DNA from: Turneriella sp.
GTDB taxonomy: Bacteria; Spirochaetota; Leptospiria; Turneriellales; Turneriellaceae
Reading direction: 5' to 3'
Length of the DNA stretch: 64,000 nt
NCBI GenBank assembly: GCA_965279515.1
Contig: CBDIID010000003.1
Span: forward strand, 1,760,001-1,824,000
Each line of letters opens with the position of its first letter. The stretch's first letter is position 1. Positions 48,351 to 54,141 of the stretch are shown piece after piece. A program made the translations under genes and the position numbers. A model generated the notes under the pieces. The model was not told where the DNA came from and searched no databases. It saw nothing but the letters and a program-made list of their open reading frames with translations.

Positions 48351-48713
48351 TCAGGTCGCGGGTTTTGTGTCAGGGGTCTTTTCGTGGGTATAGGGGCAGC
48401 ATCCCCATGCTCCCCACGAGCCCCATTTCTCCATGAACTTATCACGCTCTTCGGGCGTCATACCTTCCATCTTCTTTTCCATCTTGTAGCGCCATTTCTG
48501 CGCATTCCAGCCGTGGCCATGCTTAAAGCCGCCACCCCGGAACAGGATATGGGATAGGATAATCAGCCCACAAGCCTGCCAGAAGTTGACATAGGGACCG
48601 TGGAAGAGCTCCGGTACGAGTTTGTTCCAGAGCAGCATGGTTAGCCCGCCGAAGGCGGCGATGAAGATCGGTGCCAAAACCAGGAATTTAAGAATCTTTT
48701 TTGCCTTGTGCAT
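48351..48713 (-). CDS. Small membrane protein downstream of ECF sigma
   Basis: 2 TM helices; LLWNKLVPELF, FWQA, MTPEERDKF. Confidence 0.75.
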   Translation of the reverse strand: MHKAKKILKFLVLAPIFIAAFGGLTMLLWNKLVPELFHGPYVNFWQACGLIILSHILFRGGGFKHGHGWNAQKWRYKMEKKMEGMTPEERDKFMEKWGSWGAWGCCPYTHEKTPDTKPAT

Positions 48714-48749: not shown

Positions 48750-49256
48750 TTAATCATTAATATCCTCGAACAAATCATTCAGCCGCGCCCGCAAATACAT
48801 CACGGCATAGCGTTTGCGCGAGAGTAGCGTGTTGATACTCTCGCCGGTCTCCGCAGAAATCTCGCGGAATGTCTTGCCCGAAAGCTCGTTGAGCTCAAAC
48901 ACCTGGCGCTGCTCGGCAGGCAGCTCAGAAAGAGCCTGCTCGAACTTTTCCCAGAACGCCGCATTGCCCTGCGTCGCCGCCAGTTGCACCGCCTCGCTCG
49001 AGTCGAGGCTCGTGGCATGACGGCGCCGCCGGTAGAAATCCACAATTTTGTTGCGCGCAGCGCGGTAGAGCCACGCTGTCATATCTTCGATGCTCTCGAT
49101 GAGATTACCCTCAAGCAGGCGCGAAAAGATATCCTGTACGATATCTTCTGCGTCTTCCTCAGAATTGACACGGTTTTTGACGAAGGAGATTAATCCCTTC
49201 TTTTCGTTTGTAACCGTTTCTTCGAACCGCATCAGGGGCAAGGCCTCTGCATCCAT
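48750..49256 (-). CDS. ECF-type RNA polymerase sigma factor
   Basis: DAEDIVQD, WLYRAARNKIVD, LPAEQR, FREIS...INTLLSRKRYA. Confidence 0.92.
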   Translation of the reverse strand: MDAEALPLMRFEETVTNEKKGLISFVKNRVNSEEDAEDIVQDIFSRLLEGNLIESIEDMTAWLYRAARNKIVDFYRRRRHATSLDSSEAVQLAATQGNAAFWEKFEQALSELPAEQRQVFELNELSGKTFREISAETGESINTLLSRKRYAVMYLRARLNDLFEDIND

Positions 49257-49333
49257 ATGCCAGTATAGACGCAGGCTGAACCGGATTATTGTATTTTTTT
49301 CCTTTAACTTGACGCAGAGTCGATCGAACCTCC

Positions 49334-50068
49334 GTGGAGCCAGTGATTGGCCTGAATGAACAGGTGGCAAAAGCTCTCCAGGACCTGAAAGACCGGTTCT
49401 GTGAGACACTCGGTCCCGATCTTGTCTCACTGGTGCTCTTCGGCAGCGCCGCCGAAGGCAGGTTGCGGCTAACATCCGACGTAAATCTTATTGTTGTAGT
49501 CAGTGATTTCAGGTCTGAACGCTTCGAACCTTTACAGCCCCATATTCTGGCAGCCGAATCTTCCATCGCGCTACGGTTGATGATTTTAAGGGAAGAAGAA
49601 ATATCCCCGGCGGCAGAGCTTTTCTCGGTCAAATTTCAGGATATTCTGCACAGGCACCGCCTGCTTTTCGGTAAAGATGTTTTTGCCGGACTCAAGGTTC
49701 CGCGTGATGCGCTCTTAAACCGTGCGCGGCAGACCCTCCTCAACCAGATGATCCGGCTACGAACTCTTTCTATCACTCGTATCGCCCATAGCGAACAATT
49801 GGTACCACTCATCGCAGATACGGCCGGTCCGCTACGCGCGTCAGCGGCAACGCTTTGCGAGCTCCGTGGAGAAGCGGTTACCGGTGGCAAGGCCGCCCTC
49901 GAAAAAATTATGGCTGAGATTTTAGGCTCCGAAGGCACTGCGCTGGCGAGCAGGATATCTTATGCACGCGAATATGGCATCTTATCTTTTCAGGAAGCGA
50001 AAGAGGTTCTGAACGAACTATCGCGGGTCATCGAGGCCATGTACCGCGAAGCGCAGCATATGCGATGA
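49334..50068 (+). CDS. Nucleotidyltransferase-domain protein
   Basis: LFGSAA...SDVN Pol-beta-type motif followed by a helical C-domain; start uncertain. Confidence 0.75.
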   Translation: MEPVIGLNEQVAKALQDLKDRFCETLGPDLVSLVLFGSAAEGRLRLTSDVNLIVVVSDFRSERFEPLQPHILAAESSIALRLMILREEEISPAAELFSVKFQDILHRHRLLFGKDVFAGLKVPRDALLNRARQTLLNQMIRLRTLSITRIAHSEQLVPLIADTAGPLRASAATLCELRGEAVTGGKAALEKIMAEILGSEGTALASRISYAREYGILSFQEAKEVLNELSRVIEAMYREAQHMR

Positions 50069-51030
50069 ATGTCTTCGATTGGAACGGCCCCGACTTTCTG
50101 ATTTTCTATGCTAGCCTAGGCGGCCTTTGCTGCGTGCTCATTTCTTTTTGGCGGCGGTTTGCTGAATATAGCCCAATTCCCAAAATCGACTTAAAAGACC
50201 CTTACCTGATCGCCTACCTGTCCGGCGGCCCGTCGCTTTGCCTGCAGGCAGTAGTCATGTCACTGGTCGACCGTGGTTTAATGGAATCCAGAAGCAATAC
50301 GGTCGTCACAAAGAAAAACCAGGCTCTGGACCTCGCGTTGCCGGAAATCGAACGAGCTTTGCTGAATTATTTTTCTACGGTCCGCAGCACCAAAGAGCTA
50401 GAGACCAACGACGGTTTGCGCCGAAATGCAGAAGCTTATGGCAAAAAGCTGAGAGCCTTACGCTTGTTGCCTGACGAAAAAATCACACGCAACAGAAATA
50501 GGATGCTCAACGCGCTCATGGGTATATTCCTTATCATTGGTTTCATAAAGCTGGGTATCGCGATGGGGCGCGGCAGACACAATGTTTTTTTCTTGATCAT
50601 CATCGGTTTCATATTCTCGTTCGGAATGGTCAAATTATTTGATCCGCGCCTTACAGTGCTCGGCAAAAAAGTCCTGTCCGATTTCAAAGATATGTTTTAC
50701 ACGCTTTATCTCAAGCGGAAATATCTGAAAACTCTCGGTACGAGCATGGACCTGGCTTGGCTTGTGGCACTCTATGGAATGGACTCCGTCCCACTCGGAG
50801 TTTATCCGTTTGCGGGACATATTTTTTATGAATTTAAGCCGATGCAGCAGAGAGTCAACTATCTTTCATACATAGGTAATAGTGGCAAACGCAGCTCTTC
50901 GGATAAATCATCTCGGAACTCATCAAATTGTTCGTCATGCGGATCTTCCGGCATTACATCCTGTGGTTCATCGGGCGGGTCATCTTGCGGCGGAGGCTGC
51001 GGTGGCGGGTGTGGTGGCTGCGGCAGTTGA
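50065..51030 (+). CDS. TIGR04222-like membrane protein with Cys/Gly/Ser-rich C-terminal tail
   Basis: GPDFLIFY, DPYLIAYLSGG, 3 TM helices, tail CSSCGSSGITSCGSSGGSSCGGGCGGGCGGCGS. Confidence 0.82.
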   Translation: MNVFDWNGPDFLIFYASLGGLCCVLISFWRRFAEYSPIPKIDLKDPYLIAYLSGGPSLCLQAVVMSLVDRGLMESRSNTVVTKKNQALDLALPEIERALLNYFSTVRSTKELETNDGLRRNAEAYGKKLRALRLLPDEKITRNRNRMLNALMGIFLIIGFIKLGIAMGRGRHNVFFLIIIGFIFSFGMVKLFDPRLTVLGKKVLSDFKDMFYTLYLKRKYLKTLGTSMDLAWLVALYGMDSVPLGVYPFAGHIFYEFKPMQQRVNYLSYIGNSGKRSSSDKSSRNSSNCSSCGSSGITSCGSSGGSSCGGGCGGGCGGCGS

Positions 51031-51862
51031 CATACAAGATAAAGTGGGTCTCGGTTGGCGACCTGAGATCGGCCTGGATATACTAAAGCACGCCGATCAG
51101 ATCGACCTCGTCGAAGTGATCGCCGATGATTTTTTCACAAAACCCAAAGCATTGCTGACGCTTAAGGCACAGCTGCCCATCGCCCTGCACGGGGTAACAA
51201 TGGGTCCGGCTTCGACATTTCCCGTAGAGAAAAAACGCATCGAGAATCTCGCACGCCTCGTGGATAAAGTAGAACCCGTTTTCTGGTCAGAGCACCTCGC
51301 CTTCGTACGAGCGGGTAAAATTGAAATCGGCCATCTCGCCGCCCCCCCGCGCAACGAGACAACTGTCGAAGGCACATGTCGAAACCTCGCGCAGATGCGG
51401 CGTATCATCGGCTCCATAGGGCTGCTGGAAAATGTGGCAAGCCTGATCGAACCACCTGCCAGCGATCTCAAGGAAGACGAATTCATTTCTGCTATTCTCG
51501 GGTCTTCCGATGGCATGCTGCTGCTGGATCTCCACAATCTTTATGCAAACTCGGTTAATTTCGGCTTCGATCCCTTCGTTTTTCTCGAGAAGATTTCGCA
51601 TGAAAAAATCGCGGCGATTCACCTTTCGGGGGGCCGAGTCCTACCCAACGGCAAAATCCTCGACGATCACATACACGACGTTCCCGATATTGTCTTCGCT
51701 CTTCTCGAAAAAACTGCTTCGCTCAAAAGAACACCGCTTACCGTCATCATCGAACGCGATGGTCGATATCCGAAGTTTACGGATTTATTGGCTCAAATCG
51801 GACGGGCGCGCCAGGCTCTACAGGCCGGGAGGGAGCAACTTGCGCACAACGCAGCAGTTTGA
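51002..51862 (+). CDS. DUF692 family multinuclear non-heme iron oxidative enzyme (MNIO)
   Basis: VGLGWR, LHG, SEHL, LENV, LDLHNL, IHLSGG, DDH, IERD; in-frame GTG at 51002 (GGAGG 5 nt upstream), 51011 or 51014. Confidence 0.9.
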   Translation: MAGVVAAAVDIQDKVGLGWRPEIGLDILKHADQIDLVEVIADDFFTKPKALLTLKAQLPIALHGVTMGPASTFPVEKKRIENLARLVDKVEPVFWSEHLAFVRAGKIEIGHLAAPPRNETTVEGTCRNLAQMRRIIGSIGLLENVASLIEPPASDLKEDEFISAILGSSDGMLLLDLHNLYANSVNFGFDPFVFLEKISHEKIAAIHLSGGRVLPNGKILDDHIHDVPDIVFALLEKTASLKRTPLTVIIERDGRYPKFTDLLAQIGRARQALQAGREQLAHNAAV

Positions 51863-52058
51863 ACTTTTTTTAGCACAGCTTTACACCGACGAGACCCTGC
51901 TCGCGCGATTTGTCATGAATCCGGCAGCAGAACTGGAAAGAACGGAGCTAAATCCCGTCGAAATCGCAGCATTAATGAAAGTCAATGCTGCGGATTTACA
52001 AGGCGCCGCGCAAAGCTTTCAAGCTAAAAGAAAAAAACGGGGCGGGCACCACATCTAG
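51840..52058 (+). CDS. Small putative MNIO partner protein (72 aa)
   Basis: GGAG then TTG start overlapping the MNIO end; FELFLAQLYTD...RF..NP...A.SF..KR. Confidence 0.65.
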   Translation: MRTTQQFELFLAQLYTDETLLARFVMNPAAELERTELNPVEIAALMKVNAADLQGAAQSFQAKRKKRGGHHI

Positions 52059-52062
52059 CGCC

Positions 52063-54141
52063 TCAGCTTTTTTTCGCTGGCAGGGTTCGCATCACCCGTA
52101 AGAGCTCTTTCTCGAGGTAGGGCACGAGCGTCGTGACAAAGGTTTCGGTCAAATGGTGGGCATCGCGGTAAACCACGACATTGCCGATGATCGGCGGGCA
52201 TTGATCTTTGGTGCACATATACTCAGTCAGGTTAATAGTACCGACACCCGGAAACCCCTGCGCCGCAGTGACCAGGTTATCGCTCTGGCCGTCGAGGGTG
52301 ATATAGCGGGATTTCCAGCAGTGCGGCGATGCGACCCCGTTCCACATTAAACACTTCGGAATCTCTATCCAGCCGCCCTTCACATTGGTGAGCATGACCG
52401 GGTTGTCAGCCATGACAATGATGCGCGAACCATTCGCCTGTAGGCGGCGGAAAGTCTCGCGGTAACCTTCGATCTGTTTCTCGGCCGCGGGAAAACCGCC
52501 GTAGACACCCGTGCGGCCACCCGTGGAGACAACGTAGTCGGGTTTAGTCTCTGCTAGCCATTTATGAAAACGCATGCGAAAGCCGTCGCAGTCGCCGCGG
52601 TAACCGAACTCCGATGACCAGGTCGGAAACTCGCCGATCGTGCAGGCGATCTTTACCATCATCAAAAGCTTCCACTTCTGGCGTTTCGCGATAATGTCAA
52701 AGGCGGGGCCATACGACATGGTATGCGAGTCGCCGATGAGCGCCACGGTTACCTTGCCGTTTGGGTCTCCCAGCTCGCAGCGCTTACCCAGATTCATGCA
52801 CTCGAAGAAGCGATACCTGGTATCGCGCTCGGCGATGCGCAGGTTGGGTTTTAAGGGCACACCTTCAGGCACCGGTGCGGGATTCACTTTGTCGAGAGCT
52901 GCGGCGCCGGGATAACGCGGGTCTTTACCGTAGCTCTTTTCATTTTCTGCCTCGAGAATTTTCTGGCTACGCTCTTCTAAGACACGCACCGTCAGCGAGG
53001 CAACGGCGGAAAAAACCAACATCGCAAAAACCGTGGTGAATGCGCCACGGATAAACTGGCGGCGCGTGAGCTCGGGTGCCCGGAAACTGAAGCGGCCGTG
53101 GCGGAAGGGATCTTCGACAAGATATTTACTCAGCACAGCGAGCACGACGGTGGCAGCGATAATGATCGCCGGATCGTAAGGACGCGCGAAATCCTCACCG
53201 AAGGGTTTGAAGAAGACAATCAGCGGCCAATGCCAGAGGTAGAGTGAGTACGAAATATCACCGATATACTGCATCGGTTTGAGCGCGAGAATACGGTATG
53301 GAGAAAATGGCGCATCACCAGACAGAATGAGAAGAGCCGTACCCACGGTTGGAATCAAAGCCACCCAACCCGGAAAACGCATCTTCTCATTGATGAGAGC
53401 AATGGCCGCGATCACAGCCGCGAGCCCAATCCAGCCCATCGCGGTGCGTAAGCCTGGCGCGAGATTAATTTTTGTCGAGGCTACTGCAATGAATGCACCG
53501 AGGGCGAGTTCCCATGCGCGCGTGACGGTCGTGAAATATTCGGTGCCGGCCCAGCGCTGCGGCACGAGCGAACAATAAAGAGAAAAGCCGAAAATCGCCA
53601 CAATCAAAACGCCGGCATAGACGCGCACAGAGCCGCGGCCGAGCCGGCCAAAGAAGCCGGCGAGCGCGAGTAGTGGCGGCCAGATGACATAGAACTGTTC
53701 TTCGATCGAAAGCGACCAGTAGTGCTGCACGGGTGAGGGCGCGACGCCCTGTGCCCAGTAGTCGACAGCCTGCGCCACGAGCGCCCAGTTTTCGAGATAG
53801 AGCGCTGAGGCCATGATGTGGTGTGCCGACCCCACCCATTCGGTGCGCGCGAGAAAAAGCAAAGTGCCCACGAGCGCCACGAGAAGCACGAGCGTTGCGG
53901 CGGGCAATAGGCGGAGCATCCGCCTGCCCCAAAAACGCAAAAGGTCGAGCCTGCCCTCTTGCTCGATTTCACCGACGATGAGGCTGGTGATCAAATAACC
54001 CGAGATAACAAAGAACACGTCGACGCCGACAAAGCCGCCCTTGAAGATTTTTGGCCAAACATGGAAGATGAGAACGGCGACGACGGCGATCGCGCGCAGG
54101 CCCTGTAAATCGGGGCGAAAACTCAGACGGGCAACAGACAT
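52063..54141 (-). CDS. Acyltransferase-3/SGNH fusion (OafA/OatA-like O-acetyltransferase)
   Basis: GLRAIAV, GGFVGVDVFFVISG, WSLSIEEQFY, SYSLYLWHWP; SGNH motifs GDSH and DAHH. Confidence 0.92.
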   Translation of the reverse strand: MSVARLSFRPDLQGLRAIAVVAVLIFHVWPKIFKGGFVGVDVFFVISGYLITSLIVGEIEQEGRLDLLRFWGRRMLRLLPAATLVLLVALVGTLLFLARTEWVGSAHHIMASALYLENWALVAQAVDYWAQGVAPSPVQHYWSLSIEEQFYVIWPPLLALAGFFGRLGRGSVRVYAGVLIVAIFGFSLYCSLVPQRWAGTEYFTTVTRAWELALGAFIAVASTKINLAPGLRTAMGWIGLAAVIAAIALINEKMRFPGWVALIPTVGTALLILSGDAPFSPYRILALKPMQYIGDISYSLYLWHWPLIVFFKPFGEDFARPYDPAIIIAATVVLAVLSKYLVEDPFRHGRFSFRAPELTRRQFIRGAFTTVFAMLVFSAVASLTVRVLEERSQKILEAENEKSYGKDPRYPGAAALDKVNPAPVPEGVPLKPNLRIAERDTRYRFFECMNLGKRCELGDPNGKVTVALIGDSHTMSYGPAFDIIAKRQKWKLLMMVKIACTIGEFPTWSSEFGYRGDCDGFRMRFHKWLAETKPDYVVSTGGRTGVYGGFPAAEKQIEGYRETFRRLQANGSRIIVMADNPVMLTNVKGGWIEIPKCLMWNGVASPHCWKSRYITLDGQSDNLVTAAQGFPGVGTINLTEYMCTKDQCPPIIGNVVVYRDAHHLTETFVTTLVPYLEKELLRVMRTLPAKKS

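Follow-up and report, generated by a model that had tools for sequence, protein, structure and literature searches.

A four-gene cassette in Turneriella linking a cysteine-tailed TIGR04222 membrane protein to a BufB-related MNIO

Layout and conservation of the cassette

Four + strand genes lie in series, overlapping or abutting, in the window, the 64,000-nt stretch of Turneriella DNA that was analysed (open reading frames 49334-50068, 50065-51030 and 50882-51862, and the frame of 51510-52058). They encode a nucleotidyltransferase (NTase)-like protein of 244 aa (49334..50068), a TIGR04222 membrane protein of 321 aa (50065..51030), an MNIO (DUF692) of a BufB/HvfB-like branch (51002..51862, with an uncertain start), and a 72-aa helical protein of the NHLP/LigA clan (51840..52058). 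The preliminary description of this DNA placed the stop codon of the NTase and the start codon of the membrane protein on a shared ATGA at 50065-50068, and this is confirmed. A divergent ECF sigma gene abuts the cassette on one side and a convergent AT3-SGNH acyltransferase gene abuts it on the other. These neighbors leave no space for a short precursor gene, which bears out the earlier remark that no short soluble precursor is found nearby. A scan of 48900-52400 returned four promoter-like sites against 2.3 expected and two terminator-like sites against 4.1 expected, neither count being informative.

The same description took the four genes as one system, and gene neighborhoods indicate that they are indeed a genuine conserved module. 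When synteny was seeded with the NTase, keeping the best 80 of 193 relatives, the next gene encoded a TIGR04222 protein in 76/76 loci, followed by an MNIO in 46/47 and then by the small protein in 34/35. Seeding with the MNIO (13 loci) recovered the small protein in 13, the TIGR04222 protein in 12 and the NTase in 10, with two of the NTase misses attributable to contig-end cuts. Chance adjacency of the four genes is ruled out by these counts, which are far above chance. The conservation stops at the cassette boundary: no flanking gene is conserved (the largest cluster is present at 10/57 loci), and the flanks of these 57 loci hold no conserved protease or transporter/exporter.

The full-length NTase family was found in 1/34 genomes of the order, namely the Turneriella genome examined here, and TIGR04222 scores above its cut-off in 5/401 genomes of the phylum. 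This distribution suggests that the cassette was acquired horizontally. In five congeneric genomes, where an empty insertion site was sought, the orthologues of the AT3-SGNH and EAL flanking genes lie 30-50 kb apart, so that such a site is not definable.

The TIGR04222 membrane protein and its cysteine tail

The membrane protein matches TIGR04222 at 91.3 bits (cut-off 43) over profile positions 1-228 of 229, and alignment reveals a DPYxIAYLxGG domain. It has three clear transmembrane segments, at about residues 11-29, 148-166 and 173-191, and a fourth, weak hydrophobic segment at 228-248, which is borderline by its maximal 19-residue KD hydropathy (1.28 in the Turneriella protein, 1.71 as the family mean). 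The charge bias favors an N-terminus on the outside in 61/61 homologues. PMC12452194 predicts a periplasmic tail, whereas in the Turneriella family the charge bias and the borderline fourth segment would allow either side of the membrane.

The tail is encoded by 50929..51027 on the + strand, or 50929-51030 with the stop codon, and reads CSSCGSSGITSCGSSGGSSCGGGCGGGCGGCGS, with the terminus CGGGCGGGCGGCGS. Translation confirms the earlier description of a low-complexity tail with seven Cys: these lie within the last 33 residues, and the whole protein has ten. Homologous tails carry 3-8 Cys in their last 45 residues (median 6), and at least three are present in 50/52 complete tails from the NTase-seeded loci. 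Among 58 unique tails, Cys is followed by Gly in 285/324 cases, and the last 30 residues are 47% Gly, 27% Ser and 18% Cys. Such a Gly/Ser/Cys tail is a candidate substrate for the MNIO encoded immediately downstream.

The idea that an MNIO acts on a tail of this kind is already in print. PMC12452194 (2025) pairs a bufferin-like MNIO with a TIGR04222 membrane protein whose C-terminus is a Cys-rich tail, and proposes that tail as the substrate; the preliminary description had named the TIGR04222/DUF692 association as one with no defined chemistry, which is accurate.

More distant relatives of the membrane protein complicate the picture. The four other TIGR04222 loci in the phylum sample of 401 genomes all have radical SAM/SPASM in place of the MNIO and its partner. 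At L098-L101 the gene right after the TIGR04222 Cys-tail gene encodes a radical SAM/SPASM enzyme, at L138 and L139 it encodes a radical SAM enzyme, and L099 and L100 have NTase-like genes upstream. These enzymes recall the radical SAM/SPASM enzymes of the SCIFF/ranthipeptide type, which mature Cys-rich peptides; the Turneriella window has no radical SAM gene. In a random sample of 400 genomes from a second phylum, which yielded 12 complete TIGR04222 ORFs, a Cys-bearing tail (2-5 Cys in the last 45 residues) was present in 10/12. Not one of these ten loci has an adjacent MNIO: two have a radical SAM gene, seven have nothing recognizable within about three genes, and one is cut by a contig end. 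The co-occurrence of tail and MNIO, on which the preliminary description had staked its proposal, thus holds within the subfamily (46/47 loci) but not among the distant TIGR04222 proteins sampled, which goes part of the way towards refuting the proposal on its own terms. Another locus, L025, has lost the MNIO and partner while keeping the Cys tail.

These orphan tails could mean that the Cys-Gly tail works unmodified, for example as a thiol ligand for a metal or an Fe-S cluster, and that the target of the MNIO with its partner, or of the radical SAM enzyme, is a different molecule or lies elsewhere in the protein. The seven loci with no nearby maturase speak for this, as does the statement in PMC12452194 that one third of TIGR04222 genomes have no MNIO. 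We nevertheless consider it unlikely. Two unrelated classes of enzyme that modify peptide Cys sit directly after the same tail gene, maturase-linked tails are richer in Cys (median 6) than unlinked ones (2-5), and the overlapping genes of the cassette are tightly coupled. The tail of the TIGR04222 protein is therefore, in our reading of the sequences, the likely substrate of the MNIO. We go no further than likely because a radical SAM/SPASM enzyme replaces the MNIO and partner in relatives and because many distant Cys tails have no maturase nearby. The latter also cautions against taking a tail alone as a sign of modification: a terminal CGGCG motif by itself is no proof of it.

The MNIO and its probable 72-aa partner

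The MNIO matches PF05114 at 206.6 bits (cut-off 25) over profile positions 2-262 of 263. Its best NCBIfam models are BufB (NF050167, 171.9 bits) and HvfB (133.7 bits), and the former score falls short of the BufB equivalog cut-off of 310; judged by these scores, the enzyme is a branch related to BufB and not BufB proper. Twelve residues, H49, E83, H84, E129, N130, D162, N165, H193, D208, H209, H211 and E237, are invariant in 34/34 aligned MNIOs, and these positions we take, from work on MbnB and TglH, to be the iron-ligand sites. The ligand motifs listed in the preliminary description (LHG, SEH, LEN, DLHN, IHL, DDH and IER) are all present in the translation, and the enzyme looks catalytically intact.

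Where the MNIO begins is less clear. The earlier placement of its start within the tail codons has three candidates to support it, GTG 51002 (with GGAGG 5 nt upstream), 51011 and 51014, but GTG 51044, 14 nt past the TIGR04222 stop, is equally possible. Homologous MNIOs begin about four residues before a G-L-G-W-R motif, often just past the TIGR04222 stop, and in the Turneriella gene that position is occupied by ATA.

The 72-aa protein starts at TTG 51840, inside the end of the MNIO gene as previously described; this codon lies 23 nt from that end, has GGGAGG 6 nt upstream and aligns with the Met start of homologues. The protein had been suggested to be the partner of the MNIO, and two lines of evidence now make this very probable: the two proteins are fused in four other loci, and the complex of MNIO and 72-aa protein was predicted with a score of 0.92 in three runs, against 0.01 for the best control. 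In these runs the partner pLDDT was at least 88 and the contact agreement at least 88%, a mark that 116/157 solved complexes and 2/215 mismatched pairs reached. In the predicted heterodimer the partner sits at the entrance to the active site, against the loops that come after the ligand-bearing strands, and the invariant partner residues E8, L11, A12, Y15, L53, S59 and K63 fall in the predicted interface.

The kinship of this partner is with RiPP leader or docking domains. The Turneriella protein scores 30.0 bits (E 4e-7) against NF038399, below the cut-off of 40, and 33/34 members of its family match the same model at E <=0.01 (best 8e-11), which shows likeness at the level of the NHLP clan and not membership of the Os1348 family. 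Profile matches in the PDB are to SonA/LigA (E 0.003), the top Foldseek match is Os1348 (6lk7, TMq 0.63), with SonA at 0.51-0.56, and no Pfam family is matched at E <=0.01. Homology to DUF2063 was considered and rejected, the hhalign probability being 0.3% against 29 DUF2063 domains from one class. The protein thus lacks the DUF2063 signature of PME-type 1 (DUF2063 + RRE); its position just after the MNIO and the lack of that signature agree with PME-type 2, to which the Fig6A sheet of PMC12452194 assigns the homologue MBI3230925.1. That paper calls PME-type 2 DUF2063-like, whereas the small protein here has no profile similarity to DUF2063 and belongs with the NHLP/LigA clan. NGO1945 (3dee) and TglI (8hi7), to which PME-type 2 partners are structurally related, are absent among the Foldseek matches listed (of 79, E <=10), a weak or absent match being no proof of a differing fold.

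Because members of the NHLP/LigA clan are RiPP precursors or docking domains, it might be argued that the 72-aa protein is itself the true precursor, its leader-like domain binding to the MNIO, with the TIGR04222 protein in an accessory role such as export, immunity or scaffolding. The matches to SonA, Os1348, Frankia_peptide and TIGR04509 and the high-confidence predicted binding to the MNIO are what such a precursor would lead one to expect, and even the fusions have a counterpart, as enzyme-precursor fusions exist in borosins. In the split borosin SonM-SonA (PDB 7ltc) and in Os1348 (6lk7), a small LigA/NHLP-like helical domain likewise docks on the modifying enzyme. However, SonA and Os1348 are known or presumed precursors, each with a core of its own, and the 72-aa protein has no conserved core: no residue is conserved beyond the S-x3-K-R at the end of the domain, Cys occurs in 5/46 unique extensions, and the Turneriella protein and several others end 2-8 residues past the domain. 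Its gene follows the MNIO and does not precede it, a conserved protease or exporter was not found at 57 loci, and the MNIO is nearest the models of the Cys-modifying BufB and HvfB. We regard a precursor role as very unlikely. With no conserved core and an occasional fusion to the enzyme, the 72-aa protein looks instead like a docking domain in the role of a subunit.

A C-terminal extension of at least 15 aa is present in 34/46 unique partner homologues, with on average 7.1 basic, 7.5 hydrophobic and 0.6 acidic residues; in Turneriella this stretch is short. Judging from its composition, the basic, aromatic, amphipathic terminus of most homologues would keep the complex attached to the membrane on its cytoplasmic side.

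The nucleotidyltransferase-like protein and a proposed mechanism

The NTase-like protein matches NTP_transf_2 at 23.3 bits, just above the cut-off of 21. Its AF2 model (pLDDT 88.5) shows a two-domain ANT fold, for which Foldseek returns AAD(9)/AadA/ANT(4') (E 1e-7 to 1e-5, TMq 0.5-0.62); the best match, to AAD(9)/AadA, has a probability of 1.00 and places the protein in the pol-beta superfamily fold. It shares with ANT-type NTases (AadA, AAD(9), ANT(4')) and with protein-AMPylating NTases (MntA, GlnE) a pol-beta NTase domain followed by a helical C-terminal domain, and its G-S motif, first Asp and third Glu align with those of AadA. It differs from the ANT enzymes in having D-V-N where they have D-I-D, in an equivalog score of 26.5 against a cut-off of 340, and in the lack of any resistance context for its gene.

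The catalytic motif of pol-beta nucleotidyltransferases is hG[GS]-x9-13-Dh[DE]h plus a third carboxylate. The site here is G-S-x10-D-V-N plus Glu89, which departs from that motif in its second acid, an Asn, and retains the third carboxylate. D49, N51 and E89 are conserved in 91/91 homologues, all with D-x-N in place of the canonical D-x-D/E, and Asn stands at the second catalytic Asp in 147/150 top representatives. The distant member at L100 has G-P and S-G-V-N, so that both G-S and the first Asp are lost. The loss at L100, together with the absence of the second carboxylate everywhere, argues against NTase catalysis. The NTase-like protein is a fixed component of the cassette, and its D-x-N site is unusual; it would either nucleotidylate a hydroxyl of the TIGR04222 protein or serve that protein as a nucleotide-binding chaperone or adaptor.

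A rival view makes the NTase-like protein a pseudoenzyme with no catalysis of its own, which would bind the TIGR04222 protein as an adaptor or chaperone and hand it to the maturase of the locus, of whichever kind. To this view we give somewhat less than an even chance. Besides the altered site, it would account for the presence of the NTase-like gene with TIGR04222 in MNIO cassettes and in some radical SAM cassettes alike, and for a lineage of three loci in which NTase and TIGR04222 share one ORF. Against it, G37, S38, D49, E89, R143 and R168 are almost invariant, as fits a working nucleotide site, and Asn can act as a Mg ligand. The fusion lineage is a frameshift relative to its unfused sisters, which could reflect an error or a dead allele. 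We had also considered this fusion as a guide to topology and set it aside, since the three fused contigs represent one lineage and the frameshift lies near the end of the NTase.

On balance we favor the hypothesis that the cassette is a self-contained, horizontally acquired operon that modifies the tail of a membrane protein. The MNIO and its partner would use O2 to oxidize the Cys of the C-G repeats in the TIGR04222 tail, yielding heterocycles of the bufferin (thiooxazole) or the oxazolin/methanobactin (oxazolone-thioamide) type. The cassette has no protease or exporter conserved alongside it, so the product would stay tethered to the membrane protein, where, we infer, it would probably bind metal. 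In some relatives a radical SAM/SPASM enzyme would do the same job. Such a system departs from a strict RiPP, in which a short leader + core precursor is released by a protease or exporter, since the candidate substrate here is a 321-aa membrane protein.

A broader reading joins these elements, and we advance it tentatively, as rather improbable in its entirety. The membrane protein, with its (Ser-Ser-Cys-Gly)n tail, would be the constant element and would be matured in place, without release, by interchangeable enzymes. In aerobes the enzyme would be an O2-dependent MNIO whose partner, a former RiPP leader/docking domain of the NHLP/LigA fold, acts in trans and tethers it to the membrane, and in other lineages a radical SAM/SPASM enzyme, while the dedicated ANT-fold D-x-N protein would add a nucleotide to the membrane protein or gate it.

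To our knowledge, the substrate of every characterized MNIO is a short peptide that is released. Should the tail prove to be the substrate here, MNIO chemistry would extend to an appendage that a polytopic membrane protein keeps permanently, and the four genes would offer a compact system for testing it. Were in-place maturation by the joint scheme also true, this would be the first MNIO whose substrate is a full-size membrane protein and the first time that a leader-like domain has been taken over as a subunit of an enzyme. New here are the resemblance of the small partner to a RiPP leader/docking domain with a membrane-binding tail, and not to DUF2063; the NTase-like D-x-N protein as a constant member of the cassette; and the radical SAM/SPASM substitution in relatives. 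We found no link between the NTase and the cassette in print: the terms ‘nucleotidyltransferase’ and ‘NTP_transf_2’ are absent from the main text and both spreadsheets of PMC12452194, the figures and supplementary Figs S2-S4 of which may still draw such a gene.

Among the nearest known systems are the bufferins/oxazolins (BufA/BufB/BufC; Buf_EGKCG + MNIO + DUF2063). They resemble the cassette in that BufB and HvfB are the closest models for its MNIO and in that their Cys targets are often in a C-G context. They differ in that the candidate substrate in the cassette is the tail of a polytopic membrane protein of 321 aa that has neither signal peptide nor leader, in that the partner is not DUF2063/RRE, and in that an NTase-like gene is present. 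The same Turneriella genome also holds a separate locus of the bufferin/oxazolin type, in which an 87-aa precursor with a signal peptide is followed by an MNIO-DUF2063 fusion.

A conserved four-gene cassette

The four genes of the preliminary description, tightly packed on the + strand at 49334-52058, are a real and strongly conserved unit. They encode a nucleotidyltransferase (NTase)-like protein, a TIGR04222 membrane protein (91.3 bits, cut-off 43), an MNIO (PF05114, 206.6 bits) and a 72-aa protein. Among 13 loci found with the MNIO as seed, in MAGs of proteobacterial and Bdellovibrionota type (48-55% identity), the small protein is encoded at 13/13, although one copy is truncated by the contig end (E 0.004) and another is in the same ORF as the MNIO. 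TIGR04222 is present at 12/13 and the NTase at 10/13; two of the NTase misses are cut upstream and the third, L014, is without NTase and TIGR04222 alike. An independent seed, an NTase alignment searched against metagenomes, gave the same arrangement. Among the best 80 of 193 relatives, TIGR04222 lies downstream in 76/76 loci with at least 150 nt of downstream sequence, the MNIO in 46/47 with at least 1300 nt, and the small protein in 34/35 with at least 2100 nt. The lone exception, L025, has lost MNIO and partner, and its TIGR04222 frame continues into a TrkA-N/ion-channel gene. Across the flanks of 57 loci, no flanking gene is common to more than 10, and no conserved protease or exporter was found.

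The gene overlaps are also as first described, with one exception. ATGA at 50065-50068 is both the stop of the NTase-like gene and the start of the TIGR04222 gene, and the 72-aa protein starts at TTG 51840, 23 nt within the MNIO gene, with GGGAGG 6 nt upstream. The MNIO start is the sole layout detail in doubt: GTG codons at 51002 (preceded by GGAGG), 51011 and 51014 do lie within the tail codons, as had been claimed, but GTG 51044, 14 nt past the TIGR04222 stop, is a further candidate. Homologues begin M-x-D-R/L-V/F-G-L-G-W-R, often right behind the TIGR04222 stop, where the window has ATA. The metal ligands reported as intact (H49, E83, H84, E129, N130, D162, N165, H193, D208, H209, H211 and E237) are invariant in 34/34 homologues. 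The best NCBIfam models for the MNIO are BufB, at 171.9 bits and so below its cut-off of 310, and HvfB (133.7 bits).

On one side of the cassette lie a divergent ECF sigma gene and the genes for a 120-aa membrane protein and an EAL/cNMP protein, on the other a convergent AT3-SGNH acyltransferase gene. The 120-aa protein, encoded behind the sigma gene (48351-48713, - strand), has a His/Gly-rich stretch (GGGFKHGHGW) and WGCCPYTHE at its C-terminus; no family model matches it, and it is not kept beside the cassette at other loci. The genome of locus L008 (G443) carries two complete cassettes, at C278:4275-4964 and C197:13614-14318 (L145), the latter with 7 Cys in its tail. At L014 (3846-6152), on an Azospirillaceae contig, MNIO and partner are fused in a 390-aa protein. 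The gene before it encodes a 230-aa protein with Cys_rich_FGFR repeats, possibly another kind of Cys-rich substrate, and the gene after it a methyltransferase.

The Cys tail and its side of the membrane

The tail of the membrane protein, CSSCGSSGITSCGSSGGSSCGGGCGGGCGGCGS, holds the 7 Cys first noted there. In the NTase-seeded set, 50/52 complete TIGR04222 ORFs carry 3 or more Cys among their final 45 residues; L025 and L043, the latter with a frame problem, fall below this number. In 58 unique tails, Gly comes directly after Cys in 285/324 cases, with a median of 6 Cys and a commonest Cys-Cys spacing of 4. We regard the tail as substrate of the MNIO as the best reading and somewhat probable. 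This hypothesis is already published: PMC12452194 proposes that MNIOs act on subsets of TIGR04222 proteins, with a PME-type 2 partner or without any, and leaves the modifications and their roles to future work. It bears out the association without defined chemistry given in the preliminary description. Besides this paper and its preprint, one unrelated genome paper in the literature searched mentions TIGR04222. The main text and spreadsheets of PMC12452194 contain neither "nucleotidyltransferase" nor "NHLP", and the two papers listed by a literature search for "MNIO" with "nucleotidyltransferase" are unrelated.

In 61 TIGR04222 homologues, three transmembrane segments are clear and a fourth is borderline. 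Lys+Arg counts within 15 residues of the segments favour an external N-terminus and a cytoplasmic DPYxxAxLRGG domain in 61/61, and the side of the tail is then decided by whether the fourth segment, with a maximal 19-residue KD hydropathy of 1.71 in the family mean and 1.28 in the window, spans the membrane. PMC12452194 gives TIGR04222 proteins extracytoplasmic domains and a periplasmic tail. Single NTase-TIGR04222 ORFs in L028, L070 and L079 would imply an internal N-terminus; we set this aside, as they represent one lineage and are separated by a frameshift from the unfused sisters L067 and L076. MNIOs and radical SAM enzymes are both cytoplasmic, so any modification must take place on the cytoplasmic side, whichever side the tail ends up on.

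The predicted MNIO partner and the NTase-like protein

The pairing of the MNIO with the 72-aa protein, proposed earlier, is well supported as a predicted complex. The two are one ORF in L014, L057, L075 and L078, and co-folding scored 0.92 in 3/3 runs (best control 0.01), with partner pLDDT at least 88 and at least 88% of contacts agreeing between runs. The benchmark mark for this score was reached by 116/157 solved complexes and 2/215 mismatched pairs, counts that hold only roughly here because our own alignments were used. The predicted interface comprises MNIO residues 57-59, 87-107, 133-141, 202 and 206 (numbered from 51044), in the loops that follow the ligand-bearing strands, and includes invariant residues of the partner.

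The 72-aa protein itself matches no Pfam family, and NF038399 (Os1348 family, NHLP clan) only at 30.0 bits, under its cut-off of 40. Within its family, NF038399 matches 33/34 members, TIGR04509 14/34, Pfam LigA 8/12 and Frankia_peptide 6/12. A PDB profile search with 12 homologues found the LigA-like domain of SonA, a split-borosin precursor (E 0.003), and nitrile hydratase alpha (E 0.008). The AF2 model (pLDDT 81.3, five helices) is nearest, among the matches listed, to Os1348 (6lk7; TMq 0.63, E 0.03) and next to SonA; 3dee and 8hi7 are both absent from those matches. According to PMC7726476, Os1348 is a putative precursor whose neighbours are GNAT, peptidase and SagB-like genes, with no MNIO. 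DUF2063 homology was rejected at the sensitivity of hhalign (probability 0.3% against 29 DUF2063 domains), and the L006 homologue, MBI3230925.1, is an entry of the PME-type 2 list of PMC12452194. A C-terminal extension of at least 15 aa past the conserved S-x3-K-R occurs in 34/46 unique homologues, with means of 7.1 basic, 7.5 hydrophobic/aromatic and 0.6 acidic residues and any Cys in only 5/46; the window's is KKRGGHHI only. We take the extension for a putative amphipathic membrane anchor rather than a core peptide.

The NTase-like protein matches NTP_transf_2 (23.3 bits) and, weakly at its N-terminus, ANT and MntA models. Its AF2 model (pLDDT 88.5) has a two-domain ANT fold, and Foldseek places AAD(9), AadA and ANT(4') (E 1e-7 to 1e-5, TMq 0.5-0.62) above the protein-AMPylating MntA, GlnE and DrrA. 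Where AadA has D-I-D, this protein has D-V-N. Asp49, Asn51 and Glu89 are invariant in 91/91 homologues. Of 297 representative clusters (E up to 1e-30), the top 150 keep G37 in 149 cases, S38 in 143, D49 in 149, N51 in 147 and E89 in 149. The radical-SAM-linked member L099 keeps G-S...D-I-N, and the distant member L100 has G-P...S-G-V-N. The D-x-N site, together with the motif of L100, leaves catalysis uncertain.

Distribution and other maturases

A full-length NTase-family member occurs in 1/34 genomes of the order, that of the window; four other matches are partial (20-25 bits). TIGR04222 exceeds its cut-off in 5 genomes of a 401-genome sample of the phylum. This sparse occurrence contrasts with the second MNIO locus of the genome, and the cassette was most likely acquired horizontally; we looked for an empty insertion site and none could be defined. 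The second locus, outside the window (G000:C3:3894169-3896934; L097:3612-5934, - strand), encodes a Cys-Gly-rich precursor of 87 aa with a signal peptide and EGECHG.../C-G motifs (oxazolin/Buf_EGKCG-like), a 501-aa MNIO-DUF2063 fusion and an ECF sigma factor. Its DUF2063 signature is present in 13/13 other genomes of the genus.

At 4/4 other TIGR04222 loci of the phylum sample, a radical SAM/SPASM gene lies 1-2 genes downstream in place of MNIO and partner. L099 (239 bits) and L100 (57 bits) have an NTase-like gene upstream, L098 has DUF3592 in its position, and L101 is cut. A TrkA-N/Ion_trans_2 potassium-channel-like gene recurs beside the cassette at L019:6750-8408, L025:4730-7366 (the in-frame fusion to the TIGR04222 tail), L099:3912-5393 and L101:2194-3942; in the last two it separates the TIGR04222 gene from that of the radical SAM enzyme.

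A random sample of 400 genomes from the phylum to which locus L005 belongs added 13 TIGR04222 loci; 10 of the 12 complete ORFs carry 2-5 Cys among their final 45 residues. Co-occurrence of tail and MNIO holds among the NTase-seeded loci but not here, as none of these 10 has an adjacent MNIO or NTase. In two of them (L138, L139) the next gene downstream is a radical SAM gene, one is truncated by the contig end, and the other seven have nothing recognisable within about 3 genes (Pfam E up to 1e-4). Since Cys-bearing tails also occur at loci without a maturase, the terminal CGGCG motif is a family trait. Longer (S-S-C-G)n tails accompany maturases, an association in the tail sequences that supports the substrate idea, short of proof. 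The maturase-less L132 and L134 genes have housekeeping neighbours (ffh, rimM, trmD, rplS), which hints that the TIGR04222 family in its unmodified form has a core function.
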